Shown here: positions 43,601 to 64,000 of the stretch, in pieces
How positions within the stretch are numbered: the first letter of the stretch is position 1
Layout: each line of letters starts with the position of its first letter
From: a virus
IMG/VR virus record: IMGVR_UViG_3300012665_000925
Span: 63,624 to 127,623 of that record
Direction: 5' to 3' (one strand)
Length of the DNA: 64,000 bases
Notes under the pieces: generated by a model
What the model saw: only the letters and a program-made list of their open reading frames with translations
Database searches by the model: none
Told to the model about the DNA's origin: nothing
Position numbers and translations under genes: made by a program

Positions 43601-43640
43601 AACCCCCGAGATTTCCTTCCCATTTCTCTCGGGGGTTTTC
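43601..43640 (+). terminator. intrinsic terminator with pyrimidine-rich loop
   Basis: AACCCCCGAGA..TCTCGGGGGTTTT. Confidence 0.75.
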
Positions 43641-43831
43641 GCTTACCCGAGTTAGGGTTGCCTATCCCATCAGGACTTTCCAATAACTAATCCGAAGTTC
43701 ACCAGAGCGTCCTTCGGGAAAACTTCCCACTAACTAATGAGAAGCTAGACGGCCGCTTCCCCGAGTATTCGTTTTTTCCTGAAACGGCGAAGGTGCTTGA
43801 CACTTCGCACTAATCGTGCTAAGTTCTCACT

Positions 43832-44218
43832 ATGAGCATTTTAGATACCGAGGTCTTTCCAAGGACGAATGAGTATGACCTAAACCTGTGGCTTGATGAT
43901 GACGGCTACTTCAGGATTAGTTCGTATGAACTCGCTTGGGAAAGCCAGCACGACACAGACGAGGAGGGCAACCCCCTCTATGTAATGACCAACGAATACA
44001 ATGGCAACGACACTCTTATCTGTGTGGACACCAATGACGCAGAGATGATGAAAGCCTTTGGGCTGTCGCTGTCAGACTGTATGGAGGACGAGTGGACGAC
44101 CTCAAGTTTCTTTGAGGACGAATACCACAACCACTTCACCAAGACTTTTATGGACGCTGTGTCAGAACAGATTGACGCTATGTGTGTTCCATACGAGGCG
44201 AGAGTATTAGGTGCTTGA
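43832..44218 (+). CDS. acidic hypothetical protein
   Basis: leaderless after TTGACA-N17-TAAGTT. Confidence 0.6.
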   Translation: MSILDTEVFPRTNEYDLNLWLDDDGYFRISSYELAWESQHDTDEEGNPLYVMTNEYNGNDTLICVDTNDAEMMKAFGLSLSDCMEDEWTTSSFFEDEYHNHFTKTFMDAVSEQIDAMCVPYEARVLGA

Positions 44219-44285
44219 CAAAATGTCGGGCATTGGTGTAAGGTAGCAGTAGCACCAAAACAAACAACTAACAAAGGGAAACCAA

Positions 44286-44594
44286 ATGGACGACAGAGAA
44301 ACAACTCTAAAACTATTCGCACTAATCGGGGCAACTGCCGAGGCTAGTGCCGAGAGTGGAATGGCAACACCAATCCTTTACACGCAGATTGACATAGCAG
44401 TCAAAATGGCTGTGGAACTGGAACTCGGTGAGGACATCATCACTCACCTCAAACTCACGCAGATTGCTTTGGGTGAGGCTGTCAATGAAACAATGGAAAT
44501 GATTGACACAATGAAAGAGCAGTTCGTAGGACTGCGTAGCGAAATCGTGGAACTGGCACAGAGCCTAAACGACAACAACGAGGAGAACGACTAA
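44286..44594 (+). CDS. hypothetical protein
   Basis: SD AAAGGGA. Confidence 0.6.
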   Translation: MDDRETTLKLFALIGATAEASAESGMATPILYTQIDIAVKMAVELELGEDIITHLKLTQIALGEAVNETMEMIDTMKEQFVGLRSEIVELAQSLNDNNEEND

Positions 44595-45658
44595 TGCCAA
44601 ACTGGGTCTATACATCTATGTCGGTATCAGGTAAGACAGGGGACTTGACTGCCTTTGCCGAGAAAGCATTACAGCAACACGAAACTCAATGGCTCACCGA
44701 GAAGTGGAAACGCAACGAGGACGGCACGAACACCCAAGTTCCCGAGGAGGAACGCAAGGTAGAGATAGAACTCTCTGGCAAAAGCGACCTCTCGTTTTGG
44801 AACTTCATTCGTCCAACTGACGAGGAAATCCCTTACTACTTTGGACACAAGACTAAGCCAGAGGACGAGGACGACCCTGACGCAACTGCCGAGGAACGAA
44901 TGGCTAAGGCTATGACTTTCTCTGGCTCGGGCTGGTATGACTGGAACATTCGTGAGTGGGGAACTAAGTGGGACGCCAATGACGCAGAGTTGGACACCGA
45001 CCTCACGGAACTAGACGGCAACATAAACAACTCCATTTCCTATCGGTTCTCTACGGCGTGGTCAATCCCTACGCCTGTCTTTGAGGCTATGGTAGAGCAA
45101 CACCCCGAGTTGGACTTTGAGTTCTCCTCCGAGGAGGAACAGGGCTGGGGTGCTGAGTTCACTTCGTCTGACGGCGAGGAGGACGGCAAGCGTTCTCTAA
45201 TCCTGACGAAAGAGTGGGACATACCGAACAGCCACGCTGACTATGTAGAACGAGATAACGAGGACGGCTGTGTTTGTTCGTGGCAAGACGACGACGAGGA
45301 CAACTGGTATGAGGACTGCCCTCGTCCTGAAAAGGACTACTTCGTAGTAGTTAGTAAGACCTACCGAGTATCGGCGAGCAATGCCGAGAACGCATACAAT
45401 CTCGCAACGGACAACGACCCTGACGAGCAAATGGAACTGATTGACGACAACACGACAATCTTCATTGCTGACGAGAACGGCAAGCGTCTATACCCGACAC
45501 TAGGGAACGGCTCGCTTATGGACGAGCCTGACCAGATTGGGTGTAGCCACCACTTCGTCCCTGTCTATGAGAGCAAGGACGGCGAGGAAACGCTGACCGA
45601 AACCTCCTGCGTGTTCTGCCACGAAGTCAAGCCAGAGGACGAGGAGGAGAGCAAATGA
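44594..45658 (+). CDS. DUF1281/YubB ferredoxin-like domain protein
   Basis: MPNW, WYDWN.REWGTKWDA, FSTAWS.P. Confidence 0.75.
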   Translation: MPNWVYTSMSVSGKTGDLTAFAEKALQQHETQWLTEKWKRNEDGTNTQVPEEERKVEIELSGKSDLSFWNFIRPTDEEIPYYFGHKTKPEDEDDPDATAEERMAKAMTFSGSGWYDWNIREWGTKWDANDAELDTDLTELDGNINNSISYRFSTAWSIPTPVFEAMVEQHPELDFEFSSEEEQGWGAEFTSSDGEEDGKRSLILTKEWDIPNSHADYVERDNEDGCVCSWQDDDEDNWYEDCPRPEKDYFVVVSKTYRVSASNAENAYNLATDNDPDEQMELIDDNTTIFIADENGKRLYPTLGNGSLMDEPDQIGCSHHFVPVYESKDGEETLTETSCVFCHEVKPEDEEESK

Positions 45659-45855
45659 GCAACCGAGTAATCAGAGTTGGTGTGATGTTTGAGTTCTACC
45701 CTGACGGAGAGCACGAAGACCTGTTTGAGGGAATGACCCAGAAACAGATTATCTCCAACGCAAAGTCAATGACCTCTGACGACATTGACCGACTAGTCAA
45801 ATACAACGAAGTCTGGGACGCACTCCAAGTGGAAGTCGCCCTGACCGAGGAATAA
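45655..45855 (+). CDS. hypothetical protein
   Basis: ATGA coupling. Confidence 0.55.
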   Translation: MSNRVIRVGVMFEFYPDGEHEDLFEGMTQKQIISNAKSMTSDDIDRLVKYNEVWDALQVEVALTEE

Positions 45856-46071
45856 CAGACCACCCCCCAGTAGAGGGAAACACCTGAGCAAGTGTTCTAA
45901 ACTGCTCACCAAACTTTTCTAGAGGCGTGTATTCGTTTTTTCCCCTCCCCAGAAACTCGCCCCAAAATGGATTTGCTTTTGACAGGGGGTTCTGGTAATG
46001 TCGTTCTTGTGAGGTTCAGATAGCCTCTCGGAAACAAAGCCCAATGATAACTCGTAGAAAGATAAAATCAA

Positions 46072-46458
46072 ATGGCGACTGTAAGCAAGACTGCTGGAAA
46101 GACAGCAACCAAGTCAGAGGTTCTGACAACTGCCGAGGTAGAGGTTCGTATCTCTCCTAAGGTTCAGAAAGCAGTAAAGGCTCTTGTCCTTGCTCACGAG
46201 CAGGAAAAGGTAGTAGACGCTGCTATCAAGGTTAGTCGTGAGGCTATCCTCGCTGAACTCGGAAACGACCAGACCAAGTTCGGTGTGGACGCACGAGGCA
46301 AGCGACTAGTAAAAGTTCAGTTGGTTATGCCAAAGGACGCAACTCGCTACGACACAGCAGAGTTGGTCAAGTTCCTTGCTAAGACCCAGCCAGAAATCTT
46401 GGCTATGTTCCGAGCAGAGGACGCTAAGGCGACCACACGAGTTCTGACCCTCAACTAG
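46072..46458 (+). CDS. hypothetical protein (possible paralog of 53767-54126)
   Basis: cassette ORF; similar layout MAT.SKT..ILAELG.D.. Confidence 0.6.
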   Translation: MATVSKTAGKTATKSEVLTTAEVEVRISPKVQKAVKALVLAHEQEKVVDAAIKVSREAILAELGNDQTKFGVDARGKRLVKVQLVMPKDATRYDTAELVKFLAKTQPEILAMFRAEDAKATTRVLTLN

Positions 46459-46681
46459 GGTCAGACCCGAGGGGCGACAGATTACCCCCTTTCTCTGTCG
46501 CCTCTCCACAACGCTCTCTGGATAGACACGCTGTCTTTGACCCAGAGGGCGTTTTGTGTTTCTCGGGAGGTTGTATTCGTTTTTTCCCGAGATGCTAGAT
46601 GCTGGACAACAACACACCACTAATGGGTAGTTGCGAATGTCTGGTGTTGGTGCTAAGGTTTTGAGTGGAAAGGAAATACAA

Positions 46682-46969
46682 ATGATTTTACGAACAGCAC
46701 TAGGCGAAGTCCTACGACAGGAACGCCTCGCACAGGGCAAGACATTACGCAAGGTTTCAGGCACGGGGCTAATCGCTTTGGGCTATCTCTCGGAGATTGA
46801 GCGTGGGCAGAAAGAGGCTTCATCCGAAATCTTGGAGGGCGTTTCATTTGCTCTGGGTATTCCAGCACACGAACTCGTCTTGCGAGCAAGTCTGATTATG
46901 GCTGGGCTTTCTGTTCCAGACACGGCAGAAACGCTACTTGACGAATACGCCGACTTTATGGTAAGGTAG
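46682..46969 (+). CDS. XRE-family HTH regulator, ClgR-like
   Basis: LR..LGEVLR.ER..QGKTLR.VS....ALGYLSEIERGQKEASSEIL. Confidence 0.85.
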   Translation: MILRTALGEVLRQERLAQGKTLRKVSGTGLIALGYLSEIERGQKEASSEILEGVSFALGIPAHELVLRASLIMAGLSVPDTAETLLDEYADFMVR

Positions 46970-46973
46970 TGCT

Positions 46974-47207
46974 ATGGACGAAAACTACGAAATCAAAACA
47001 GTCATCATCTCGTATGATGACGACACGGAACCAATAGAAGTTGATGTGGTAATCGGGGACGGCAAGACTGTCTTTGATGAGAACTTTGAGTTTGACTATC
47101 GCATCTACTTTTACTTCCACGACCAAGCCGAATACGATTTGGCAAAGGGCGAGGAAATCAAACACGACGCGGGCATTGAGTTTCGCATTGTAGAGGAAGT
47201 GGAGTAA
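46974..47207 (+). CDS. acidic hypothetical protein
   Basis: in operon. Confidence 0.55.
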   Translation: MDENYEIKTVIISYDDDTEPIEVDVVIGDGKTVFDENFEFDYRIYFYFHDQAEYDLAKGEEIKHDAGIEFRIVEEVE

Positions 47208-47404
47208 TGGCAAGACAGGTTCACTTTGTAGTCGTTGTAGACCTTGACGACAAGTCTTGGTTCGTTGATGACGATACCTTTACGGCTCGCTTTGACAAAG
47301 ACGAGGGGACTTGGGATACCGATACCCTTGATTGGCGAGCAACAACTCACGAGGAAAACATTGAGGCTTTGGAAATCCTGAAACCGATTACCTCGCAAGA
47401 GTAA
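47207..47404 (+). CDS. hypothetical protein
   Basis: TAATG coupling. Confidence 0.55.
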   Translation: MARQVHFVVVVDLDDKSWFVDDDTFTARFDKDEGTWDTDTLDWRATTHEENIEALEILKPITSQE

Positions 47405-47830
47405 AACTAAATAGACTTGCCTAGCACGGAAAAACCCGAGGTTCGCCGAGGCGTTGGTGTGGGTATTCGGATACTAGTAAAGACGGATACTTGCTGACCA
47501 TCTTGCCCTTTATGCTAGGGAAACCGACCGAGAAGTCGCTAAAGTAGAGTTGCTTGAGAAAGAACGCATTGTGCTTATTCAGATAGCAACCAAAGTCAAA
47601 GTAGAACCAACGGCAATCCTGCCCCTGTAAGTATGTTGATGTGGACTTGTCCACGAGACGAAATAAACAGCCGTAGCGACCGAGGTTCTACTTTTTCTTT
47701 ACCCTCTGGGTTGTATTCGTTTTTTCAGGCACGCCTTCATCAACTTCGCATTAGTGCTTGCTTTTGTCGCAGGGTTGTAGTAAGGTTGGTCTTGTAGTCG
47801 GAAGTGCCGATTACGGGAAGGGATAGTCCA

Positions 47831-48313
47831 ATGGGACTAGATATGTATTTAGAGGCTCGGAAAGCAGTTTCGGGTTATTCACACAGACCAATAGACGACC
47901 AGAACGAATACGAGGAAGTGCTTGCCCTTATGGGTTTGAGCAAGTCTGACTTTTCGCCAGAGGCAAGTCCATTCGGTAGCCTTAGCGTGGGTGTTGGGTA
48001 TTGGCGTAAGGCTAACCAGATACACGCTTGGTTCATAAACAACCACGCACCAGAGGGCGTGGACGATTGCCGACCTTTCTACTTTGGTGGCAAGAGTGAA
48101 CTCAAAGTCCTACGCGATTTGTGTCAGGAAGTTTTGGACGACCACGACAAGGCAGAGGAACTACTTCCACCTAGCGAGGGCTTTTTCTTTGGGTCATACG
48201 CTTATGACGAATACTACTTCGCTGACTTGGAGAACACAGTTGAGCAGTTGGATAAGATACTCACTAATCCAAAGTTTGACGACTTTGAGTTTGTTTACCA
48301 CGCGAGTTGGTAA
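47831..48313 (+). CDS. conserved phage hypothetical protein
   Basis: MGLDMYL..YWRKANQIH.WF..LP..EGFFFG..YDEYY..Y.ASW. Confidence 0.7.
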   Translation: MGLDMYLEARKAVSGYSHRPIDDQNEYEEVLALMGLSKSDFSPEASPFGSLSVGVGYWRKANQIHAWFINNHAPEGVDDCRPFYFGGKSELKVLRDLCQEVLDDHDKAEELLPPSEGFFFGSYAYDEYYFADLENTVEQLDKILTNPKFDDFEFVYHASW

Positions 48314-48481
48314 ACTCCTAAACTGGAAAACCCCTAACGCACATTAGGGGTTTTTCTTTTGGCTCGCACCTGTATTCGTTTTTTCCCGCGCTCGCGGTGG
48401 CACGGCTTGACTTCACAACTACTTAGTGATAAGGTTGAGGTATCAACAGGACGAAACATAAGTAATCCGAAAGGGAACACA

Positions 48482-48907
48482 ATGACAGAAACCATAACTA
48501 TCGCAGGTCTAGTAGCGACTACACCGCGACACCTCATCACGGGGGACGGCTTGCCGATTACCTCATTCCGTATTGCCAGTAGCCACCGCAAGTTTGACCG
48601 CGACACTATGTCTTGGAAAGACGGCGAGACAAACTGGTATACCATCACCTCGTTCAAGCAGTTAGCAATCAACACGGCTGGCTCGGTGAACAAGGGCGAC
48701 CGCATTATCATAACGGGCAAGTTGCGTGTGCGTGATTGGGACAACGGCGAACGGGCAGGGACTTCTGTGGAAGTTGAAGCCGAGAGTATCGGCTTTGACC
48801 TCAACTGGGGAACGGGCGTGTTTACCCGAACCGTTATGGTTCGCGACCACGACACCCACGCAGAGGACACTTCACTCGCACCGATTGAGATTGACACTTC
48901 GGTCTAA
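48482..48907 (+). CDS. ssb: single-stranded DNA-binding protein (actinobacterial type)
   Basis: ITIAG.VATTP, SFRIASS.RKFD..W.DGETNW, LA.N..SV.KGD, GKLRVRDW. Confidence 0.9.
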   Translation: MTETITIAGLVATTPRHLITGDGLPITSFRIASSHRKFDRDTMSWKDGETNWYTITSFKQLAINTAGSVNKGDRIIITGKLRVRDWDNGERAGTSVEVEAESIGFDLNWGTGVFTRTVMVRDHDTHAEDTSLAPIEIDTSV

Positions 48908-49035
48908 CCGAACGGCAAGGGTAGGCGAGCATAACGGCTCGCCTATCCAGCCTCAACGGCAAGCCTAACGGCAAGCCTTGACAAGACTGACCCTAACTGG
49001 TAGGGTAGATAGAGCAACGGACGAAAGGAAAACAA

Positions 49036-49281
49036 ATGACCGATGTGCTTGACCGAGTGGAGAACTCCACTCAAACCGATAACGGACAGCCAATGGTTGC
49101 CCTGTATAACAAAGACGAACGCCTCGTAGGTATGGTGAACGGCTGGCGAGTTGCTGACGGAGTTATGGCGATAGACAGAACCATTCGCAGAGCAGTAGCA
49201 ACTTCCGAACTCTCAATGGCAGAACTGTTTGAGATTGACCAGCAAATCGCTAGACTTCGCGACTTGCGTGGAACTCTCTAA
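49036..49281 (+). CDS. hypothetical protein
   Basis: own promoter TTGACA; SD GAAAGGA. Confidence 0.55.
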   Translation: MTDVLDRVENSTQTDNGQPMVALYNKDERLVGMVNGWRVADGVMAIDRTIRRAVATSELSMAELFEIDQQIARLRDLRGTL

Positions 49282-49444
49282 ACCTTGACCCTCAACTTCG
49301 GTTGGGGGTTTCGGCTAGGGGGTTCGTATTCGTTTTTTCCCTAGACAGAAACGCTTGGGTCTTTGCCTAACGCAAAATGTCGGGGGTATGGTTTATTATT
49401 GAGATGTTGGTGAAATCCAGTAGTCAACAAGGAGAACGATACAG

Positions 49445-49660
49445 ATGCTTCCAGACGAAGTAATCAAACTAAGCAACACGCTAAAAGCCTACAAGCGAGT
49501 AATCGCTGACCTAGAAAGTCAGGCAGACACATACGAACCAAACGCACTTGACGACACCCTAGCCAAACTCACCCATAGGGTTTGGGAGATTGAGAATGTT
49601 TGGGGAGATGAGTTGGAGAAACTAGAAGCCAGCAAATCGCGACACCCTAGCAACAACTAA
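49445..49660 (+). CDS. hypothetical protein
   Basis: cassette ORF. Confidence 0.55.
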   Translation: MLPDEVIKLSNTLKAYKRVIADLESQADTYEPNALDDTLAKLTHRVWEIENVWGDELEKLEASKSRHPSNN

Positions 49661-49846
49661 CAACTTCACACTAAGGAACGCACTCGCGGAAACGCGGGTG
49701 CTTTTCTTTTACGCGGACTTGTATTCGTTTTTTCACTGAAGCACGCGGAACAAAAAACTACTAATGCGAAGTTGGCAAATTGTCGGGGGGTGCGTGGTAT
49801 ACTTGGAGAGTAGTCAAGTTCGGCTACACGGAAAAGGGAGATACAA

Positions 49847-50173
49847 GTGGCGACACTAATCACACACGCGGAAGCAAAGCAACAACTCAAAGACGAATGG
49901 TCTTGGCTGAAAGACACCAAGCACATTCGGGACGAAGTTAGGCAGATGTCTAACTCAAACCTACCAATCTACACAGCAGACATAATCAAAGTTTGGACTG
50001 AACTGCCACACGAATACAGCAACAAGTTTTCTGAAATTCGTTCGGCTGGCGAATGGCTGGACTTCACCATTCAAGATTTGATGAATGACGACCTTTGGTT
50101 GTATTACGACTTTGTGTTTTCTGGTGCGTTGTCTGAACTCGCCGAAGAACTCGGGATAAGTCTGGACGACTAG
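49847..50173 (+). CDS. hypothetical protein
   Basis: cassette ORF, SD AAAGGGAG. Confidence 0.55.
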   Translation: MATLITHAEAKQQLKDEWSWLKDTKHIRDEVRQMSNSNLPIYTADIIKVWTELPHEYSNKFSEIRSAGEWLDFTIQDLMNDDLWLYYDFVFSGALSELAEELGISLDD

Positions 50174-50345
50174 CAACACGACTAAGAGAACTCGCTGGCT
50201 CACGCTGGCGAGTTTTTCTTTGCTCGCTGGTTGTGTATTCGTTTTTTCCGTGGCACGCAAACACGGGAGCAGATGAGTTTGCTTTGTGGGGTGGAGTGTG
50301 CAATAATTGTCTTGTTGCCAAAAGTATTGGCACGAAAGGGAAGAA

Positions 50346-50735
50346 ATGATTACACAGACAATAGACGCTTACACGCTTGACCAGCCAGAAGTTCAGAGCC
50401 GAATTATTTCGGAGATTGACACAGACGGAGTTTTCTGGGCATACGCCGAAGTGTTTGAAAATGGCGAGTGGGTTCGCGATGACGCGGTAGTTTCTTATCA
50501 AAGGGACGAAGTTGTTGTCAGGGACATTCGCTTTGACACGGACGCATTGGAATACTTTGCCAATCAGGGCATAGTTCCTAAGCACAAGTGTCCAAACTGC
50601 TCGGGATACATTCCGAACAACGACCACATTGGAGCATACTCGGGGGCTATCTCACGCAGGGACAGCACCATTGAGATTTGCTCGGCTTGTGGAACGCGAG
50701 AAGCCTTGGAAGATTTCCTAAAAGCCAAGGCGTAA
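50346..50735 (+). CDS. hypothetical protein with C-terminal zinc finger
   Basis: CPNC..AISRRD..EICSACG.REA. Confidence 0.6.
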   Translation: MITQTIDAYTLDQPEVQSRIISEIDTDGVFWAYAEVFENGEWVRDDAVVSYQRDEVVVRDIRFDTDALEYFANQGIVPKHKCPNCSGYIPNNDHIGAYSGAISRRDSTIEICSACGTREALEDFLKAKA

Positions 50736-50979
50736 AAAACTTGTGGCGAGAGTTATCCCCCTTTCTCTCGCCACTTGGGCGTGAACATTCCGTCAAAGCA
50801 GAACGGCAACCTTATCCCCTTTCGGTTGCCGTTTTGTTTTACGCCGTGGAGTATTCGTTTTTTCACGAAGGCACGGAAAAAGCGAAAGGACAACTTCGCA
50901 TTAGTGTTGCGAAGTTGCGAATGTCGGTGGACTATGGTAAGTTTGTCTTATGATGAAATACATCAGAAAAGGGAGCAAG

Positions 50980-51411
50980 ATGAAATTAGAAACAACTATT
51001 ACCTCACAGTGCGTTTGCGAAAAGGTGGACGAAAATGGCGAGGGAGTATTGGACGAACAAGGCGAGGCTATACCTGCTGACGACTGCCGATACGACTGCT
51101 ACGAAGAACAGGTATACGACTTCACGGATAACATTCTGCCTTACTGGTTGGAAGCCAAAGGAATTATGGCAGACAGTCCAGTCCGTATTCTCGGCTCGGG
51201 TATGACTTGGCGTGGAGTATCAGGACACTCTGACACTTCTGCACGGGGAATTGTAAAGGCACTGGAGTTTGGAAACGACTTCACACTTCGCATTACTTAC
51301 GATGACGAAACTCACGACCTAAACATTGTTCGCTCAAGCCACGATGAATACGGAGCAAGTTTCTCTGTTGTGCCACAACCTATTGAAGACGATGATACCG
51401 AATGGGAGTAA
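50980..51411 (+). CDS. hypothetical protein
   Basis: cassette ORF. Confidence 0.6.
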   Translation: MKLETTITSQCVCEKVDENGEGVLDEQGEAIPADDCRYDCYEEQVYDFTDNILPYWLEAKGIMADSPVRILGSGMTWRGVSGHSDTSARGIVKALEFGNDFTLRITYDDETHDLNIVRSSHDEYGASFSVVPQPIEDDDTEWE

Positions 51412-56206: not shown

Positions 56207-56511
56207 CCACTACTCCAAAAGAACCCCCGCCTAACCCGCGGGGGTATTCTTTTGTCCAAATTGAACCCGCAGAACGCCCGCTGACGGACTTTTAGCGTCC
56301 AGAACGTCTACTGACCCGTCCAGCACCCTTAGACCCGTCTACGGGCGTCCTAGGGCGTTCTAGGTGTCTACCCTTTGATACGGGGGCATACAAAAGCACC
56401 ATTGAGCGTGCGGGGACGATGTATTCGTTTTTTCCAGCTGCTAGCACTCCAATTCGCTTTTGTCCGTGGCTTGGTGTAGACTGGATGTATCAAGTCCAAT
56501 AAGGGGGCAAA

Positions 56512-56946
56512 ATGAGCGAGCAAGAAGTAGCCATCAGCATTGAGTATGAAATCATACTGCGACTAGCAGAACCATACTTTCTCAAAAGAATTGAACCAGT
56601 AGGTAAGTGTATGGTTTGGCACGGACCATTCAAGCAAGAAGTTACGCATAGAAAACCCGTGATTAGGAAGTCCGTGCCAACTAACCAGACACGTTCAGCG
56701 TCCCGCTATGCGTGGGAATTGCTCTACCCAGAACTACCAGAGCATAGAAAACTCCGTTACACTTGCGGAAACGATTTGTGTGTAGCCCCAGAGCACCAAG
56801 AAATCATTCAGGATAGTTGTCCTAAGGGGCACGAAATGACTGACGCAAACAAATACCTAGTCAAACTAACTAATGGCTTCACCACCTACACTTGCCGTGT
56901 CTGCGTTACCACCGCCCACAAAGCGAAAAGAAAAGCCAAGAAGTAG
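56512..56946 (+). CDS. HNH-endonuclease-like protein (possibly degenerate) with CxxGH finger
   Basis: CMVW.G, R.AWE, TCGN.LCV.PEH, CPKGH...CRVC. Confidence 0.7.
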   Translation: MSEQEVAISIEYEIILRLAEPYFLKRIEPVGKCMVWHGPFKQEVTHRKPVIRKSVPTNQTRSASRYAWELLYPELPEHRKLRYTCGNDLCVAPEHQEIIQDSCPKGHEMTDANKYLVKLTNGFTTYTCRVCVTTAHKAKRKAKK

Positions 56947-57108
56947 GTAGACCACCAACCAGCAACCCCACGGACGCAGGATAAGCGTATTCGTTTTTTC
57001 CTCAGCTTCGGACTCAACTTCGTATTAGTTTGCTTTTGTCGGTAGCCCGTGGTAAGATTTAGGTATCAAGTAAACCACTTGATTTGAAAACTAAACAAAG
57101 GGAGAGCA

Positions 57109-57318
57109 ATGAGTTCAATTCAACTAGTTCCCGCCTACGGGCGCGACTACAAGAACCAGCGTGAAGTCCAAGAAGCGTGGGACGCTAACAAGGACTTTTG
57201 GACTGCTGATATGTTCAATGGCTACGGCACTGCGACTAACAAGCAGGACTGCGATGCTATGGCAATGCGAGTAGTTATTCGCTACGCTAACGGCTTGAAA
57301 CTATACGCCGTCAAGTAA
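57109..57318 (+). CDS. hypothetical protein
   Basis: PAYGRDYK....W...KDF motif. Confidence 0.6.
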   Translation: MSSIQLVPAYGRDYKNQREVQEAWDANKDFWTADMFNGYGTATNKQDCDAMAMRVVIRYANGLKLYAVK

Positions 57319-57453
57319 AGCCACGGGGTTAGGTGTCCCCCCACACCTAGCCCCGTTTTACTTTTGTCGCGGGACGTATTCGTTTTTTCCTCGGCCGTGA
57401 ACGCTGTGGTGAATGGATTTGCTTTTGTCGGTGGGTGGGTGTAGTATCTAGGT

Positions 57454-57666
57454 ATGGATACAAACACACAATTAGAAAACGCACTCAACGCGGTCGCCGA
57501 AATTGACGCCCGCCTTGACCTAGCCAAGCCCCTTATGGATTTGGCTATTGACCTCACTAATGCGGCTTCAAGGCTGTATAGCGTGGGCAAACTAGACTGG
57601 GCAAACGAAACCCTTGCTATGGCAAATAAGGTTCTGGAACTCGCTAACAAGCACCTAACCGCCTAG
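57454..57666 (+). CDS. hypothetical protein
   Basis: leaderless after TAGTAT. Confidence 0.55.
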   Translation: MDTNTQLENALNAVAEIDARLDLAKPLMDLAIDLTNAASRLYSVGKLDWANETLAMANKVLELANKHLTA

Positions 57667-57785
57667 TCCCCCGAAACTAACCCGTCAGCGTTCCCCCTAA
57701 CGCTGGCGGGTTTTTTCACGCACGGGCTACTCACGGCAACGTATTCGTTTTTTCCGTAGGCCAGAAAAAAAATTGGCGTGGCGAT

Positions 57786-57814
57786 TTGCTTTTGTCGGTG
57801 GTGGCCTGTATACT
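57786..57814 (+). promoter_or_regulatory. representative cassette promoter
   Basis: TTGCTT-TTGTC..-N17-TATACT; consensus TTG(C/A)(T/C)T-TTGTC-N12-TA(G/A/T)(A/G)(C/A)T recurs in about 30 cassettes. Confidence 0.85.
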
Positions 57815-57857
57815 TAGAGAGTAGTCAAGAAAGGCTACCTAAGCAAAGGGAAAAGAA

Positions 57858-58088
57858 ATGAACGGATTACAAGCAAGACTTCTAGTCATTAGCCTAGAAA
57901 CCGAAATCAAGTCGGAAGGAAACTTCCAGATGACCCGCGAGCCAGCAATGCGTTCACTCGGTCGCCTAATGGGAATTGACGCTTACGCAACATTCGGTCG
58001 TGGCGTCAAGGGTCGCCAGAAAGCGTTGGAGTGGCTCAAGGGAGCAATCGCAGACGCGGAAGCCGAACACGGAGCAGACGCGTTCTAA
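57858..58088 (+). CDS. hypothetical protein
   Basis: cassette ORF. Confidence 0.55.
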   Translation: MNGLQARLLVISLETEIKSEGNFQMTREPAMRSLGRLMGIDAYATFGRGVKGRQKALEWLKGAIADAEAEHGADAF

Positions 58089-58277
58089 TCAGGAGTGAAG
58101 CCCCTGGCCCGAAAGGGTCGGGGGTTTTCTAATTTTTTTCTGGCAGGGGTATTCGTTTTTTCCGTCAGGGTCGGGGGACGCGGTGTGGCGATTAGGAATT
58201 GTCGTAAGGGTATGGTAAACTTCTATTAGTTGGAAGTTAGCGAATGTCTAACTCAACTGAAAAGGGAGTTGAACCAA

Positions 58278-58565
58278 ATGGCAAGAATGCCTAGTGTTTC
58301 AAAGATTGAGAAGAACGATTGGTGGACGAAGTTTGAAAGTGGCTTAGTCAAGGTTGAAGTTGCGGAAGTATTCCTAGTCAACACAATTGGTAGCACCTAT
58401 GAAATCGCTGAGTGGGATACGCACGGAGCGTTTCCAGCAGACTTCTATCGCATCACCAATGTTCGCACTAACAAGAAGAAAATCTTCTGGGGAGAAACAG
58501 CGTGGATGGACGCACGCCGTTTCGCAAGCGACCTAGACTTTGCGGCGTGGAGCAGTATCGGATGA
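58278..58565 (+). CDS. hypothetical protein
   Basis: cassette ORF; FWGETAW.DA.R. Confidence 0.55.
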   Translation: MARMPSVSKIEKNDWWTKFESGLVKVEVAEVFLVNTIGSTYEIAEWDTHGAFPADFYRITNVRTNKKKIFWGETAWMDARRFASDLDFAAWSSIG

Positions 58566-58856
58566 GCGAACCACTAAGCCCTTGCTGTAAAGCAAACTAC
58601 TTGTGGCTCACTTGCGATGAATGCGAGCAAAGTGGAGAGGCTCACGACTTCGCGACTTGCTCCAAATGCGGAGCAGACATAGACGACTAAGAAGAAAGGC
58701 TCTCGCAGAAATGCGGGAGTTTTTTTCTGGACGCGAGGTGTATTCGTTTTTTCCGCTACGACACACTCGGGGCGATTACGATTTGCTTTTGTCCTACCCG
58801 AGTGGTATGCTTATGGTATAGCCAGAAAGTCTGGCTAGAAATGAAAGGGAAACCAA

Positions 58857-59078
58857 GTGAGCAAACATCACGAAGTTCTAGAAGTTCAGAAGTCAATGAT
58901 TGCTATCCACGATAGCCGAGACAAGTTGGCTAAGGAAGTTATGGCAGGTTTGGGAAACGGCGACAACCTTGCTGGTATCAACCTAGACACGCTAACCAAG
59001 TTCGCTAGAGAAGTTATCAAACTAAACAAAGAGTTTGAGATTTTGTCAGCACAGCACAAGGAACTAATGGGCTACTAG
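58857..59078 (+). CDS. hypothetical protein
   Basis: cassette ORF. Confidence 0.55.
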   Translation: MSKHHEVLEVQKSMIAIHDSRDKLAKEVMAGLGNGDNLAGINLDTLTKFAREVIKLNKEFEILSAQHKELMGY

Positions 59079-59292
59079 CAACAAGCCCGAGAAACCCTCA
59101 ACCGAAATGGTTGGGGGTTTTCTTTTGCCCTACGGCTTAGTGAGAAGTGGGATGACGCGGGATGGTATTCGTTTTTTCCCCGACATCTCAACACTCGCAG
59201 AATGAACTTGCGTGTGTCGGTGGATTGGTGTAAACTGAAGTGGTAGTCAGGAGAGCAAGGGGCTTGAGGGCTACAAAAGGGAAGGGTCAGAA

Positions 59293-59532
59293 ATGACTAA
59301 GATTGTTCTAACATCTACCTCTACTGGTCAGCGTGGTCAGAATGGGAAGAAGAAGGTTTACGAGATTATCGTAAACGGTCGTTCGGTTGAGGTTCGCTGG
59401 GGCAAAGCGGAAGAAGACCAGCGACAGGCACAGACTAAGTTCTTTGCGTTTGACTGGCAAGCACAGCAGTTCGCATTGGAGAAGAAGTGGGAGAAGGTTG
59501 AGAAGGGCTACACAGTAGCCTACACCGCCTAA
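59293..59532 (+). CDS. stand-alone WGR-domain protein
   Basis: KKVYEI.V.G..V.VRWGK...Q.K.F...A......K.EKGY. Confidence 0.75.
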   Translation: MTKIVLTSTSTGQRGQNGKKKVYEIIVNGRSVEVRWGKAEEDQRQAQTKFFAFDWQAQQFALEKKWEKVEKGYTVAYTA

Positions 59533-59766
59533 CCCCTGATAGACCCAACGAGGGTATTGCCCCCCTTTCCCCTCGTTGATGAGAAGACCCCCGAGTTCAG
59601 ACTTGGGGGTTTTCGCTTTCCCTGTTCGGTTCACGGGACGTATTCGTTTTTTCCCTAGACGAGATGACGCCAGTTTGGGAGTTTGCTTTTGTCTGTGGTA
59701 GCGAGTAGAATTGACCTTGTAGTCAGGACGACAAGGGGTCGGAGGGCTACGTTGAAAGGGGTTCAG

Positions 59767-59958
59767 ATGTTTACTCTGAACACAACGGCGGGACACGCTG
59801 TCATCAACGGACTAGGACAGATTCTTCTGTTCGCTACTTGGGCACAGGCTAACGCCTACGCCGAGGCAAGTGAGGAGTTGCGTGGTCGCGTTTCACCTTA
59901 CTTGACCTACGCACCAGAGCCTCTGGTTGCCGAGGAAGTGGTTGAGCAGTTCATCTAG
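59767..59958 (+). CDS. hypothetical protein
   Basis: cassette ORF. Confidence 0.55.
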   Translation: MFTLNTTAGHAVINGLGQILLFATWAQANAYAEASEELRGRVSPYLTYAPEPLVAEEVVEQFI

Positions 59959-60156
59959 GACTGACCAGCGAGAGCCTCACCCTACGGGGTGGGGTTCTTC
60001 GCTTTTCTGGGTTGGGGCTAGTAATCTGAAAAAACGAATACGCACCTGCGGGGACACGGCTCGTCCAACTCGTCCCTTGATTTGACTTTGTCTGTGGTTA
60101 GGTGTAGGCTGGGTTTTACCAGCCGAAGAGTTCGGCGGTAGAAGGGGGCAGGGACT

Positions 60157-60609
60157 ATGTCCAAGCCAGCAAGCGAAAAGCAGATTGCTTTTCTTTCCAC
60201 ACTCGCGAGCGAGCGAGTTCACGAGTTAGCGATTGACTTCGCGGCTCTAACATCAGGTCAGGCGTCAAGCCTGATTGAAACCCTATTGGGTTCTCCACGC
60301 AAGACTGGCGGTTCGGTTGAGCGTATTACCGAAGAAGGTATGTATCAAAACGCGGGTGGCGACATCTTCCGCGTCCAGACTTCACGCCAGTCTGGCAACC
60401 TATACGCAAAGCGTCTTGACGTCTTTGACGGCGGTTTCATCTACGAGCCAGGGGCTCTCCGCAACATCAAGCCAAGCGACCGCCTAAGCGTTGAGCAGGC
60501 TAAGGCTCTGGGCGTTCAGTATGGTTTCTGTATCGTCTGCGGTATCTTGCTTACCGACCCTAAGAGCGTTGAGCAGGGTATCGGTCCTGTGTGTATCAAG
60601 CGTGTCTAA
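60157..60609 (+). CDS. DUF6011-like zinc-finger protein
   Basis: ASEKQ.AF N-term; CIVCG..LTDP.S...GIGPVC. Confidence 0.7.
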   Translation: MSKPASEKQIAFLSTLASERVHELAIDFAALTSGQASSLIETLLGSPRKTGGSVERITEEGMYQNAGGDIFRVQTSRQSGNLYAKRLDVFDGGFIYEPGALRNIKPSDRLSVEQAKALGVQYGFCIVCGILLTDPKSVEQGIGPVCIKRV

Positions 60610-60806
60610 CGCAAGTTAGTCAAGACCCCCTTGCCAAACGGCAGGGGGGTTTTCCTTTTGCTAGTGCGAAGTTGCCAGCATCACGGATAGTATTCGTTTT
60701 TTCCCTAGTGTTCGGCTCGTGTGGTGGGGACTTGCTTTTGTCTGTGGGGTGTGGCATAATTGAGGGGTGGGCAACCCTGCTCACCACCAACTCAAAGGGG
60801 CTTCAA

Positions 60807-61055
60807 ATGTCTACATTCTTCAACTCAACCACCACCCTAACCACCCTTATCCAGTCAGTAGACGCTGACGGAGTTGGCACAACCTACCGAGGTTATGACC
60901 GATTCCCTGTGGGACACGACTACTACTTGGAGAGTGAGTGCGATGTCTGTAATGGCGAGGAGGCTGTCGCTCGCCTCGTTGATACAGATGAGGGCGTCTG
61001 CGAGGACTGCCGTCAGGAAGCGAAAGAGGGTGGCGACAAGTTCGCCAAACTCTAG
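60807..61055 (+). CDS. hypothetical zinc-finger protein
   Basis: CDVC, CEDC. Confidence 0.55.
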   Translation: MSTFFNSTTTLTTLIQSVDADGVGTTYRGYDRFPVGHDYYLESECDVCNGEEAVARLVDTDEGVCEDCRQEAKEGGDKFAKL

Positions 61056-61203
61056 GCTCACCACGCTTGCTTCGCTTCGGCGAAGTTTGCGTGTTCGTGT
61101 AGCGTATTCGTTTTTCCAGCGTGGCTTGCGGATAAGGCTGTGGACTTGACTTTGTCGTAGCAGTATGATAGACTGGTGGCACACCAGTTGAAAGGGGTTT
61201 CAA

Positions 61204-61371
61204 ATGAACAAGTTAGAAGTTGCTCGCCTAAAGGCAGAGCGTGAAGTCTTGGCTTCACTATTGCGTGAGCGTTCACGCTCTAACGCTTCGGGCGTTCACG
61301 GCAACAAAGGAACAAAGAGAGCCAACACTCGTTCGGCTCGTAAATCAAAGGCACTAAAGGAGTGGGCATAA
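61204..61371 (+). CDS. small basic protein
   Basis: 55 aa, SD GAAAGGGG. Confidence 0.55.
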   Translation: MNKLEVARLKAEREVLASLLRERSRSNASGVHGNKGTKRANTRSARKSKALKEWA

Positions 61372-61682
61372 TGGAACTAACACCAACAGAACAAAGTGCG
61401 GTAAAAGCAATTTACAGCGATTACCACATTGGTGCGATGTCTGCGGACGAAGCACTCTACGAACTAGAGCAACTCATCAACAAGTAGGACTAACAAGTAA
61501 AGACCCCCTAGATGAAAGTCTGCGGGGTTTTTTCTTTGCCCTGCGTCTGTGGGACGTATTCGTTTTTTCAGGCTTATACGGAAGCAAGTGGCGTTGGCTT
61601 GACTTTTCACTAAGAGAGTGTTAGACTACTTATGTAGTCAGGAAGCCAAGGTGGTTGAGGACTACACGAAAGGGCAATCAAG

Positions 61683-62006
61683 ATGACCAACATCAAGATT
61701 ACTTGGGTATCAAAGGGATACTTGGGCGAGCACAGGGACGAAACTATCCTTGACCTAATCAACAAGGGCTACGATGTTCGTGGCAACGCAACAGCTGAAC
61801 TGGAGTTTGACTTTCCAGAGGGCGACAGAGAAATCTGTAATGCCGTATTCAGCAACACCAACCACTACGCTGGTAAGTTCTGGGACGCACTACAAGAAGT
61901 TATCCCTGCGGACAGACCACACACCGCACTAAGCATTGGCGACAAGGTTGCCATTGACGGACGAGAGTATGTGTGTAGCGAAATCGGTTTCACGCTAGTC
62001 GCCTAG
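61683..62006 (+). CDS. hypothetical protein
   Basis: HTALSIGD.V motif. Confidence 0.6.
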   Translation: MTNIKITWVSKGYLGEHRDETILDLINKGYDVRGNATAELEFDFPEGDREICNAVFSNTNHYAGKFWDALQEVIPADRPHTALSIGDKVAIDGREYVCSEIGFTLVA

Positions 62007-62179
62007 CCAAACCTGCGGAGAGCCACTACCCGAAAGGGCAGTGGTTTTTCTGCGTTTGGGTTGCGGTTGAATGTATTCGTTTTTTCCTTGATGACGCCGT
62101 AGCAGTTTGGCGATTTGACTTGGGGGCTATTTTGATGTAGACTTGTGATGTAATCAAACGATTACACGAAAGGGAGATT

Positions 62180-62362
62180 ATGTTTAGAGAGCAAGCAGGG
62201 GACGACCAGCAAGCAGAACTATTCGCTATGGGTCTAATCAAAGAACCAAAGGACTACGGAACACTAATGCTTGTTCCTTGTCGCCACAAAGTATTCTGCC
62301 GAACTCACGGAACATTCTGGCTACGCTTGAGATTTCTCAAGTCAGGAAAGATTTTCTTCTAA
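62180..62362 (+). CDS. hypothetical protein
   Basis: cassette ORF. Confidence 0.5.
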   Translation: MFREQAGDDQQAELFAMGLIKEPKDYGTLMLVPCRHKVFCRTHGTFWLRLRFLKSGKIFF

Positions 62363-62441
62363 CCTACTTGACTTTGTCTTAGGTAAGTGGTAAGATTGTC
62401 TTAGACAACCAAATAGGTTGCTAGAAAGAAAAGGGAAACAA

Positions 62442-62645
62442 ATGGAAGTAAAGTATCCAGAAGTCAAGAAAGTCAAACTAGTTGGCGAAGACGGAAATGC
62501 GTTTGCTATTCTGGGGCGTGTAATGAAAGCAATGAAAGTTGCTGGACTACCGAAAGAAGTTGTAGACGCTTACTACGCGGAAGCCACGAGTGGCGACTAC
62601 GACCACTTGCTACAAACCACTCTCCGTTGGGTGCGGACTAAGTAG
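62442..62645 (+). CDS. conserved small phage protein
   Basis: LVGEDGNAFAILG....A.SGDYDHLL. Confidence 0.7.
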   Translation: MEVKYPEVKKVKLVGEDGNAFAILGRVMKAMKVAGLPKEVVDAYYAEATSGDYDHLLQTTLRWVRTK

Positions 62646-62850
62646 AACCCGCCGAGTTGTCGGACACAACTCAAAAAGCCCTCTCGCTCACACACGGCGA
62701 GGGGGTTTTCTTTTCTCCGTGCTAATGCGAAGTTGCGGAAGCATCGTGAAAAAACGAATACTCTGGCTGGCGTGGCGACTTGACTTTGTCTGCCGTCTAT
62801 GTTAGACTACTTATGTAGTCAAAAAGATTACTTGATAAAGGGAGAAGCAA

Positions 62851-63072
62851 ATGGACACAGTAAGCGATTGGTCAAAGAACTTTGAACAGCGTTGGGACGA
62901 GTATGTTCTAGAAAAGACGACAGACGAACTTCAGAGCGAGGGCGACAGCCTGAACTATCACTTTGAGGACTGTGCCGAGGGCGGCCACGGCATTAGCACC
63001 AAAGACTCAATCCGTATGGACCGCATTGAGAAAGAACTTCTACGCCGAGGCAAGAGGCCTTGCTGGAAATAA
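62851..63072 (+). CDS. hypothetical protein
   Basis: cassette ORF. Confidence 0.55.
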   Translation: MDTVSDWSKNFEQRWDEYVLEKTTDELQSEGDSLNYHFEDCAEGGHGISTKDSIRMDRIEKELLRRGKRPCWK

Positions 63073-63253
63073 CTTCCAACTAAGAAAGCCGTCAGCCGAA
63101 AGGTTGGCGGTTTTTTTTATTATTTTTTTTTTCTGCGGGCGTATTCGTTTTTTCACCAACAACACGCCGCTTCGTATTGGCATTTGACTTTGTCGGTGTA
63201 TCGTGTTAGACTACTTGTGTAGTCAGAAAGATTACTTGATGAAAGGGAAACAA

Positions 63254-63406
63254 ATGAGCGAACAGCAGGAAACCCGCGAGCAGATGATTGCCCGCCTAAT
63301 CCGAGAGGAAGCCCAAGCGGAGCGTATGTTTGAACTCCGTGCTGCTTTCGGCGACGAGGAAGAGGTTGTAAACATCCTCACTGGTGAGAGAACTCGCCTA
63401 CGCTAA
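63254..63406 (+). CDS. hypothetical protein
   Basis: ELRAAFG..VVNILTG motif. Confidence 0.6.
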   Translation: MSEQQETREQMIARLIREEAQAERMFELRAAFGDEEEVVNILTGERTRLR

Positions 63407-63595
63407 ACCACGACAGCGAGCCCCCTACTGAAAAGTGGGGGGCTTCTTCGTTTCTGTTTTTTATGCGGTGCGTGTGTGTTCTGAAAAAACGAATACTTAC
63501 GGGGACGCGGGTAGGTATGGCGACTTGACTTTGTCTGTCGTGCGTGGTAAACTACATTTGTAGTTGAAAACAGCAACTACGAAAGGGAAGAAGAA

Positions 63596-63865
63596 ATGAC
63601 CACTGTTACACCAAACGAAGCAAAGTGCGGAATGCCAGCAACCTACGCAATTGGCAGCGACTCATACGCAACCGAAGTTACCGCTGTTTACCGCTTTGCT
63701 TCTGGCGAGCGTAAGGGACAGGTTCGTGCTGTTGAAGCAGGTAGTTACGGATTGTTCACACTTCGTATCAAGGGACGCAAAGCAGGACGCCTAATCCGTC
63801 AGGGTGGCGACCACGGGACCCTGCGTCTAGGCGAAGCCATTAGTTATTGGGACCCTAGTTTCTAG
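63596..63865 (+). CDS. hypothetical protein
   Basis: ATY.IGSDSY...YWDPSF. Confidence 0.6.
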   Translation: MTTVTPNEAKCGMPATYAIGSDSYATEVTAVYRFASGERKGQVRAVEAGSYGLFTLRIKGRKAGRLIRQGGDHGTLRLGEAISYWDPSF

Positions 63866-63876
63866 GTTCCCCCTGA

Positions 63877-63908
63877 AAGCCCCCTGATAAAAGTCAGGGG
63901 GTTTTTTC
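63877..63908 (+). terminator. intrinsic terminator
   Basis: CCCCCTGA-taaaag-TCAGGGGG-TTTTTT. Confidence 0.8.
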
Positions 63909-64000
63909 ACGCACGGCTTTTTTTTTTTTTTTTTTTTTTTTTTTTTGTTTTTTTTTTTTTTTTTCTGTTTTTTGTTGCTTGGGGTTTTGGTCTTGCTTTT

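Follow-up and report, generated by a model that had tools for sequence, protein, structure and literature searches.

What does a phage gain from placing one short sequence in front of some 35 small transcription units, and does that sequence serve the expression of the genes, their exchange between genomes, or both? The question is raised by an array in the right-hand part of a 64-kb stretch of a large phage genome (positions 63,624 to 127,623 of IMG/VR record IMGVR_UViG_3300012665_000925), hereafter called the window, whose source is treated as an uncultured freshwater actinophage. Each unit of the array starts with a 15-bp sequence, here called the box. Comparison with relatives from IMG/VR and from metagenome runs indicates that units are very probably exchanged at the box. 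The reading we prefer, with a probability of about 0.55, is that the array consists of autonomous units in which the box is a factor-binding upstream promoter element that doubles as the crossover point.

The box and the units it heads

The box consists of the 14-mer GTATTCGTTTTTTC with C as its 15th letter. Allowing up to two mismatches, the 14-mer is matched 35 times in the window, where 0.39 matches are expected and the largest number in any shuffle was 2; 33 of the copies are exact, and those at 55868 and 61104 have one mismatch each. The copies are spread from 39.8 to 63.5 kb, the first 39.8 kb of the window being free of them, and all 35 are intergenic. Thirty-one are found on the plus strand and four (39824, 60028, 62748, and 63483) on the minus strand. 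Among at least 123 stretches listed in a box scan of IMG/VR, mostly with single chance matches, are two related contigs with the same box, G001 (125.8 kb, estimated to be 93% complete) and G002 (53.9 kb). G001 has 41 copies, all within 49.9-78.6 kb, and G002 has 43, while a reversed-pattern control gave none in either. When 98 copies from the three genomes are aligned, the conserved block is sharply 15 nt long, ending in TTCC, and the flanks are unconserved. The box is asymmetric and non-palindromic, and it has no inverted partner. Hairpins formed by paired flanks and enclosing the box were noticed by eye for some copies, were not systematic, and were discarded. Across 29 pairs of collinear boxes, divergence amounts to 0.5% of positions in the box, 2-4% in the flanks, and about 1% in terminator and leader; since the higher flank divergence fits an unconstrained spacer, the idea of the box as a mutational hotspot was rejected.

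The initial annotation had described about 30 self-contained cassettes with a standard set of parts, a chassis, between 43740 and 63910. This layout holds: 34 of the 35 boxes fall within that span, and the units mostly follow the order terminator, box, host-type promoter, hairpin at about +1, AAAGGG ribosome site, and one short open reading frame (ORF). The ORFs of the array were called by a heuristic of this analysis, on the plus strand only. There are 43 of them with a median length of 82 amino acids (aa), 28 of the 34 box-to-box intervals contain just one, and no paralogues were found among the window ORFs by blastp at E<1e-5. Terminator-like sites number 57, compared to 21.0 ± 5.5 in shuffled sequences, and a hairpin with a T-rich tail is present no more than 75 nt upstream of 23 of the 31 plus-strand boxes; these stem-loops are predicted to act as terminators. 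The ribosome site is represented by AAAGG or AAGGG within 20 nt upstream of 33 of the 43 ORFs. Leaders were long enough to be folded in 31 of 35 cases, the other four being too short, and gave a mean z of -2.46 relative to plain shuffles, with 20 of the 31 below -2. The stem begins 1-8 nt past the -10 element; its position is constant, while its sequence varies from unit to unit. All of these parts had been pointed out in the initial annotation. So had the near-identical promoter-leaders at about 61620, 62801, and 63205, which were recovered as one repeat family, D15 (74%, 100%, and 91% identity).

The promoter motif has a -35 element TTG(A/C)(C/T)T, a 17-nt spacer starting with TTGTC(G/T)GTGG, and a -10 element TAnnnT, which is often preceded by TGG or GTG. 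A profile trained on 22 hand-picked sites gives 23 matches at E<0.01, all at 47.7-63.6 kb, where those 22 match by construction and one (52657) is new; outside the array it has only five matches, all with E of at least 0.88. A regular expression for the TGTC-type promoter finds 19 sites downstream of plus-strand boxes. The motif initially proposed, with its TTGTC spacer and TAnnnT at a distance of 17 nt, is found at these sites, but not throughout: in the units of the first half (43.7-53 kb) the promoters are weaker or different, often with an ACTAATG-like word ahead. A different design is found in the units with boxes at 43765 and 57376, where the -10 element is situated just 6 nt before the ATG (43820-43834 and 57442-57456). 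These two units are likely leaderless, with neither hairpin nor ribosome site, a design that is common in actinobacteria.

Junctions between relatives

Orthologous genes of the window and G001 or G002 are 65-87% identical at the DNA level. Gene order is largely kept in clusters 1-14, the left part of the array. The remainder is mosaic: for 15 of 47 window ORFs neither G001 nor G002 has a counterpart, and shared genes are found in changed order. The relatives are accordingly neither collinear nor invariant in gene content. Orthologues that have changed neighbours tend to keep their leader (identity 0.61 against a background of 0.45, n=42) and their terminator (0.63 against 0.49, n=47), while the spacers on both sides of the box are unconserved even in syntenic pairs.

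Breakpoints at nucleotide resolution come from two closer pairs, found through a metagenome scan: L211 with G002 (97-99% identical in most blocks) and L210 with G001 (97-98%). These pairs display 12 structural junctions, seven of which fall inside the 15-bp box. Four of the seven are single-unit insertions or deletions where the blocks end and restart in the box, with an overlap of 16-24 nt that corresponds to the box (46 nt once). The other three are the joints of one 757-bp unit that has been transposed past five others, and here the identity to the parent switches inside the box; at two of these joints a difference at box position 15 puts the crossover before that position. Among the remaining junctions, a replacement ends 16-21 nt before a box, an allelic replacement reaches from the -35 element to the start of the terminator, and three small insertions or deletions (93, 149, and 197 nt) lie more than 250 nt away from the nearest box. 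The suggestion in the initial annotation that gain, loss, and reordering of genes break at chassis sequences is supported by the seven box junctions and by the replacement from -35 to terminator.

The initial annotation had also proposed to look for deletions joined at boxes in reads, and such a deletion is found among natural variants, in contigs of two metagenome runs from different studies, X1 and X8. Both have a joint 53164->53620, with 166 and 205 letters on the shorter side, and these variants therefore lack exactly unit 14, from the box at 53179 to that at 53621. Contigs of one run show a back-joint 63497->62768 just past two inverted boxes, with 76 letters on the shorter side, which would fit a circle, a duplication, or another gene order. 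Two well-supported joints are located off boxes (58561->58691 and 61022->61143). Many further joints abut boxes or promoters but have a shorter side of only about 20 letters; they are cross-matches of the chassis of relatives and were left out of the count. The usual word sizes of assemblers exceed a 15-bp repeat. For this reason, and because the same unit-14 deletion was found in two studies, assembly chimeras are an unlikely source of the rearrangements.

The chassis is itself modular, and leaders swap between unrelated ORFs. Similar leader pairs precede ORFs of different clusters in 49 cases and ORFs of the same cluster in 15. The leader of ORF 61683-62006 is, from approximately the start site to the ATG, identical at 54 of 55 positions to that of an unrelated G002 ORF; the window orthologue of the latter (52732-53118) has another leader, and the promoters upstream differ.

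The role of the box

Of 19 window units, 14 have the -35 element 42-45 bp from the start of the box and three have it at 33 bp; the modal distance is 43 bp. Taking the three genomes together, 47 of 55 strong promoters fall within ±2 of 43+10.4k bp (48% expected, p 8.5e-9), and 22 of 30 do so when the main class is removed (p 0.0045). A Rayleigh scan for the period was abandoned in favour of this ladder test, as one mode dominates and periods were inseparable. Inverted boxes precede plus-strand promoters in 4 of 35 cases in the window, 10 of 41 in G001, and 7 of 43 in G002; the three in the window that have strong promoters are 33, 43, and 55 bp from -35, the first two being on the ladder. The distance from terminator stem to box is looser, 12-43 bp. 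Since the distance to -35 is constrained and that to the terminator much less so, the box appears tied to the promoter and to one face of the helix. Between box and -35 the word ACACG is about six-fold enriched (12.4 against 1.6-2.4 per kb) and present in 49 of 115 units. It lies mostly 17-25 nt upstream of -35 in the window (e.g., 54750-54760), G001, and G002, is also found in lineages with variant boxes, and may be a second chassis element.

The box differs between lineages. L206 (1,077 bp) is 95% identical to window positions 53708-54794 and its coding sequence is nearly identical, yet both of its boxes have CA, not CG, at positions 6-7; it also has a 10-bp deletion between the first box and -35, which changes the distance from 43 to 33. 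Loose ends in run X2 have CA boxes at two further loci, while none of the 35 window boxes is of the CA type. An IMG/VR scan for the CA..CC box gave at least 118 single matches, none of those listed being related to the window. More distant relatives, found through the 354-aa ORF 44594-45658 (41-53% aa identity), have the same chassis and a box of their own that is uniform within the contig: GTATTTATTTTTTC with 20-23 copies per 20 kb, GTATTCATTTTTT with 18 copies, or TATGTATTTTTTCC with 13-14 copies. Positions 6-7 are thus CG, CA, or TA depending on the lineage and uniform inside each genome. Other multi-copy intergenic words (CGCGCTCGCGG with TGATCGATCA, GGGGTAAAAAT, and AGCAAAAAGTAAAA) were seen in L138, L142, L160, and their kin, and lineage-specific boxes may be general in this phage supergroup.

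The preferred promoter distance and the lineage variants, neither of which is mentioned in the initial annotation, together point to a regulatory role for the box. As 15 positions are kept exact amid free-running flanks, and change in concert between lineages, a sequence-specific reader is suggested. Candidates were sought in the window and in G001. The initial annotation called the array integrase-free, which is inaccurate in so far as the window encodes a 226-aa serine recombinase (4438-5118); no Phage_integrase domain, the mark of a tyrosine integrase, was found in G001 or in the window ORFs scanned. The recombinase gene is situated between primase and dNMP-kinase genes, close to tail-fibre genes around which no convincing inverted repeats were found that could be its target. 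The only small serine recombinase of G001 is its orthologue (91% identical). It is encoded also by G006, a contig with CA boxes, and is absent from G004, which lacks this box type. In the best 80 of 597 related IMG/VR stretches the protein is 69-93% identical at the aa level, and among these are the contigs L145 and L146, which lack such a box in their 20-kb early region. The sites used by serine recombinases have two-fold symmetry and are bound by dimers. Because the box is lone, asymmetric, and half-site-sized, and because the recombinase is conserved in box-less contigs, it is probably not the box enzyme. Further DNA-binding candidates in the window are a MerR/Xis-like helix-turn-helix (HTH) protein (35791-36264) and WhiB. 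No family annotated as a repressor came up when 52 + 44 = 96 window ORFs were scanned with PHROGs, and a sigma-factor domain is absent from G001.

According to the preferred reading, the array would be a plastic, early-type gene region of a large freshwater actinophage. Each unit would be transcribed autonomously by the host RNA polymerase with its principal sigma factor from a strong promoter with an extended -10 element. The stem-loop at about the first transcribed base most likely shields the 5' end of the mRNA, and downstream of it would come a strong ribosome site (AAAGGG), in most cases a single small ORF, and finally an intrinsic terminator. The box would be an upstream promoter element about four helical turns before -35, on a ladder of approximately 10.4 bp, where one sequence-specific factor, probably phage-encoded, docks and acts on the polymerase at all promoters of the array, either as an activator or for timed control. 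Recombination within the 15 bp would then delete, insert, or transpose whole units (box-spacer-promoter-leader-ORF-terminator-spacer) in such a way that the products stay working units. Exchange would take place at the box because it is the only perfectly identical sequence common to every unit. Taken separately, the proposal that the box is a factor-binding upstream promoter element stands at even odds, and short homology as the means of exchange, which is preferred here to a dedicated enzyme and accords with the exchange by homology inferred in the initial annotation, is a judgement that could fall either way.

Several observations weigh against this reading. Of the 12 junctions, five lie outside boxes. 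A generic E. coli-type sigma-70 scan was not enriched (17 sites against 13.9 ± 4.2 in shuffles), which speaks against the promoter claim of the initial annotation. At least two promoter-like sites have no box (62367 and about 48978), and the box at 52320 has no convincing promoter. The period and reference of the ladder were picked after viewing the data, and 8 of the 55 distances are off it. No box-binding protein was identified among the window and G001 candidates; for the XRE-type HTH protein (46682-46969), covariation with the box type was considered and dropped, since it is present in all lineages with a nearly invariant recognition helix and gave no signal. Fifteen bp is short for ordinary homologous recombination, and G001 has no RecT or ERF annealing protein. 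No simple model easily explains a box that is uniform within a genome and yet changed between 95%-identical relatives. Finally, we infer the promoters, start sites, early timing, and hairpin function, as well as the existence and identity of the box factor, from DNA sequence.

Other explanations take up parts of this evidence. The confinement of all seven box junctions to the 15 bp, though promoters and leaders offer other repeats, would be expected if the box were a site-specific recombination site in an integron-like system, at which the serine recombinase or an unrecognised nuclease excises and reinserts circles. Such a system would also fit the back-joint between two boxes as a circle or duplication, the direct repetition of most boxes, which deletion and insertion would need, and the presence of the recombinase in the window, G001, and G006 together with its absence from G004. 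It is nevertheless very unlikely, for the box stands alone as an asymmetric 15-mer that lacks both an inverted partner and a conserved flank, boxes are inverted without inversion of genes, and the preferred distance to -35 is left unexplained. Moreover, the recombinase is widely conserved, also where there is no box, while the box changes between far closer relatives. It is quite unlikely as well that one dedicated enzyme or RNA-guided factor of the phage governs the array and at the same time carries out the excision and insertion of cassettes. If true, it would mean a promoter-carrying, integron-like exchange native to a lytic phage, and the switch in specificity from CG to CA between near-identical relatives would define exchange groups.

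A rather doubtful alternative, in which recombination is incidental, is that the box resembles the stoperators of Cluster A mycobacteriophages, being a roadblock or shut-off site where a phage repressor blocks read-through or silences the array later or in a carrier state. An asymmetric 15-bp sequence with more than 30 strictly intergenic copies, 31 of 35 of them co-oriented with transcription and 12-43 bp past terminator stems, suits this role, and the lineage variants recall the diverging immunity specificities of Cluster A phages in the available part of the account (PMC9283540). Stoperators are spread genome-wide, however, while the boxes are confined to one array in both the window and G001, and the box keeps its distance to -35 and not to the terminator. 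In the same partial account reversal abolishes stoperator function (PMC9283540), while 4 of 35 boxes in the window and 10 of 41 in G001 are inverted; the PHROGs scans of the 96 window ORFs show no repressor-annotated family, and G001 has no integrase. The box could also be an intrinsic DNA signal with no dedicated factor, such as a displaced UP-like element or a bent T-tract contacted by the alpha subunit of the polymerase. It has a run of six T, the variants approach the distal UP half-site (consensus A-W5-T5), it is helically phased with -35, and two of the three inverted window boxes with strong promoters are at the usual 33 or 43 bp. Against this, all 15 positions are invariant per genome (including G1, C6-G7, and C14-C15), which exceeds what a degenerate A/T-rich signal needs, and position 7 switches in concert between 95%-identical relatives. 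In addition, the box lies at about -79 to -65, two turns upstream of the canonical A/T-rich UP position at -40 to -60. This makes an intrinsic signal highly improbable.

Cargo, source genome, and known systems

The units are listed in Table 1. About nine of 44 ORFs scanned, 42 of which are within 43740..63910, match any Pfam or PHROG family. The recognised cargo comprises an HTH protein, a single-stranded DNA-binding protein (SSB), one clear (56512-56946) and one weak HNH endonuclease, DUF3846, DUF6011, and DUF1281_C-like proteins, and a few function-less PHROGs. ORF 49847-50173 matches Ocr at E 0.008, below the family cut-off, and had no usable match in the ESM Atlas. The initial annotation proposed host-takeover or anti-defence factors; such a cargo is plausible by likeness to the SPO1 module as presented in the available part of its description (PMC6873191).

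Table 1. Units of the array, their boxes and ORFs, and the serine recombinase gene, in window coordinates.
Feature	Position	Strand	Remarks
Small serine recombinase, 226 aa	4438-5118	-	Resolvase domain (1e-33) and start of Recombinase domain; outside array
Whole array	39823..63910	+	35 box-headed units; every called ORF on +
Unit 1	39823..43764	+	Box 39823-39837, inverted; weak promoter pick; first, three-gene unit: ORFs 40032-40511, 40554-41576 (MoxR-type AAA), 41710-43509 (VWA-like)
Unit 2	43765..45928	+	Box 43765-43779; leaderless type; ORFs 43832-44218, 44286-44594, 44594-45658, 45655-45855
Unit 3	45929..46572	+	Box 45929-45943; ORF 46072-46458
Unit 4	46573..47712	+	Box 46573-46587; ORFs 46682-46969 (XRE-type HTH_3), 46974-47207, then ~300 nt ORF-free
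Unit 5	47713..48371	+	Box 47713-47727; -35 at 47758; ORF 47831-48313
Unit 6	48372..49325	+	Box 48372-48386; ORF 48482-48907 (SSB)
Unit 6, second ORF	49036-49281	+	Own box-less promoter-like site near 48978
Unit 7	49326..49720	+	Box 49326-49340; ORF 49445-49660
Unit 8	49721..50234	+	Box 49721-49735; ORF 49847-50173
Unit 9	50235..50850	+	Box 50235-50249; ORF 50346-50735
Unit 10	50851..51567	+	Box 50851-50865; -35 at 50915; ORF 50980-51411
Unit 11	51568..52319	+	Box 51568-51582; ORF 51693-52268 (weak HNH-type zinc-finger matches)
Unit 12	52320..52617	+	Box 52320-52334; promoter unconvincing; ORF 52413-52565
Unit 13	52618..53178	+	Box 52618-52632; ORF 52732-53118; G002 orthologue has other leader
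Unit 14	53179..53620	+	Box 53179-53193; ORF 53292-53558; presence/absence varies naturally, joint at boxes
Unit 15	53621..54203	+	Box 53621-53635; ORF 53767-54126
Unit 16	54204..54724	+	Box 54204-54218; ORF 54326-54673 (DUF3846); closest relative has CA box and 10-bp shorter spacer
Unit 17	54725..55363	+	Box 54725-54739; small hydrophobic ORFs 54836-55042, 55042-55200, 55212-55316
Unit 18	55364..55867	+	Box 55364-55378, 33 bp to -35; ORF 55485-55814
Unit 19	55868..56420	+	Box 55868-55882 (one mismatch), 33 bp to -35; ORF 55979-56206
Unit 20	56421..56986	+	Box 56421-56435, 33 bp to -35; ORF 56512-56946 (HNH endonuclease, phrog_826, 5e-14)
Unit 21	56987..57375	+	Box 56987-57001; ORF 57109-57318
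Unit 22	57376..57740	+	Box 57376-57390; leaderless type; ORF 57454-57666
Unit 23	57741..58148	+	Box 57741-57755; ORF 57858-58088
Unit 24	58149..58739	+	Box 58149-58163; ORF 58269-58565; 58562-58690 missing in variants
Unit 25	58740..59164	+	Box 58740-58754; ORF 58857-59078
Unit 26	59165..59639	+	Box 59165-59179; ORF 59293-59532
Unit 27	59640..60026	+	Box 59640-59654; ORF 59752-59958
Unit 28	60027..60689	+	Box 60027-60041, inverted, likewise before G001 and G002 orthologues; ORF 60157-60609 (DUF6011)
Unit 29	60690..61103	+	Box 60690-60704; ORF 60807-61055
Unit 30	61104..61555	+	Box 61104-61118 (one mismatch); ORFs 61204-61371, 61362-61487
Unit 31	61556..62072	+	Box 61556-61570; ORF 61683-62006; leader ~61629-61682
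Unit 32	62073..62746	+	Box 62073-62087; ORF 62180-62362; box-less promoter 62367; ORF 62442-62645 (phrog_1933)
Unit 33	62747..63140	+	Box 62747-62761, inverted, 33 bp to -35; ORF 62851-63072
Unit 34	63141..63481	+	Box 63141-63155; ORF 63254-63406
Unit 35	63482..63910	+	Box 63482-63496, inverted; ORF 63596-63865; terminator 63875-63907

Some features of the array stand apart from the unit plan. In the 354-aa ORF of unit 2, a 125-nt segment (45511-45637) is swapped for 32 other letters in contigs of runs X1, X2, and X3, and looks like a variable insert inside the gene. Positions 47405-47546, where no plus-strand ORF was called, are 92% identical to G002 and L211, compared to 73-83% for neighbouring genes. 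The segment has no Rfam match and could be a small RNA or a minus-strand ORF (47421-47654); an Rfam search of the array at E<=0.1 gave just two sub-threshold chance matches. Past the last terminator, in the place where a box would be expected, 63915-63973 contains T runs of about 29 and about 17 nt, which may be genuine homopolymers, stem from slippage, or mark the end of an assembly; the window itself stops at 64000. Between terminator and box at about 18520-18590 of L211, and at the matching place in G002, there are three DnaA-box-like words (TTATCCACA or its complement); similar ones are found in L144 and none in the window.

Outside the array the window encodes a PrimPol/D5 primase-helicase, a class II ribonucleotide reductase, ThyX, tail-fibre-like proteins, and endolysins, as well as WhiB (19921-20229). 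The 599-aa ORF 41710-43509 has its best protein matches in actinophages, where identity does not exceed 43%. An actinobacterial host is assumed because of the WhiB genes and because the best protein matches are to actinophages. A search of the phage collection for DNA nearly identical to the window gave no match, and such DNA was found in freshwater and estuary metagenome runs of several studies. The window also has a phage-borne tmRNA (tag AESRSTFALAA) and genes for tRNA-Asn, tRNA-Thr, and tRNA-Ser (21841-22143, 22447-22519, 24589-24662, and 24765-24851).

In the open-access literature searched, neither this box nor the shuffling of cassettes by freshwater actinophages is described, and the array is placed here by comparison with systems known from elsewhere. 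Integron cassettes are promoterless, and the tyrosine integrase encoded beside them recognises their attC sites, which are imperfect palindromes, in the form of folded single strands. The array resembles them in that gain, loss, and reordering of single-ORF cassettes take place at a short sequence that recurs. In contrast, each of its units has a promoter motif of its own, the box is a 15-mer without palindromic symmetry, and no tyrosine recombinase was found in G001; the array is not an integron.

The box itself is reminiscent of the stoperators bound by L5 gp71-type repressors, which in the available part of the account are found genome-wide in temperate Cluster A mycobacteriophages and lose function when reversed (PMC9283540). 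Both are asymmetric sequences of 13-15 bp in actinophages, present in more than 20 mostly co-oriented copies in short intergenic spaces, and both have specificity variants. The box differs in its confinement to one array, its tolerance of inversion, and its preferred promoter distance. The cognate protein of stoperators is an immunity repressor with a monomeric HTH and a stoperator domain; no repressor homologue was seen among the 96 window ORFs scanned. As regards content, there is a likeness to the host-takeover module of SPO1, which also consists of dense small early genes in many short transcription units with high-expression promoters and ribosome sites (PMC6873191). There is no sequence relation between the two, and the available part of that description mentions no invariant box and no box-bounded shuffling for SPO1 (PMC6873191).

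In the array, the concerted change of the box and its helical phasing point to a factor, the discovery of which would give access to the way phages of uncultured actinobacteria control transcription. In metagenomes, arrays and cassette boundaries can be located with the box and its lineage variants as a sequence tag, and the chassis (insulating terminator, box, strong promoter, 5' hairpin, and strong ribosome site) would be a ready-made set of parts for gene expression in actinobacteria.

Of the known systems, the promoter-early stem-loop (PeSL) cassette of T4-type phages comes nearest. There a strong early promoter is combined with a stem-loop in hyperplastic regions, insertions and deletions of orphan ORFs are bounded by the motif, and mini-circles have been proposed, as far as the available parts of these accounts go (PMC2839356; PMC4122927). 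Like PeSL, the array places a predicted terminator and a putative host-type promoter motif in the intergenic gaps of a plastic region of orphan ORFs, and in both the single-ORF insertions and deletions between close relatives are bounded by the motif, so that the products keep their own promoter and terminator. The window phage, with its actinophage protein matches and WhiB genes, does not belong to the T4-type myovirus lineage, and the array is an analogue of PeSL, not a member by descent. Apart from the unrelated lineage and host, the PeSL similarity is spread over about 100 bp, whereas the crossover in the array is pinned to a discrete, invariant 15-bp box that lies apart from promoter and terminator and has lineage variants and a preferred helical distance to -35; furthermore, the PeSL stem-loop overlaps the promoter, while the terminator of the array precedes the box. 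Shuffling of promoter-terminator cassettes, so far documented in T4-type phages of Gram-negative hosts, is now seen in abundant uncultured freshwater actinophages, where crossovers resolve to one invariant 15-bp box in several independent events and in contigs from independent studies. A concrete rule, open to test, is thereby provided for the turnover of accessory early genes in these phages.

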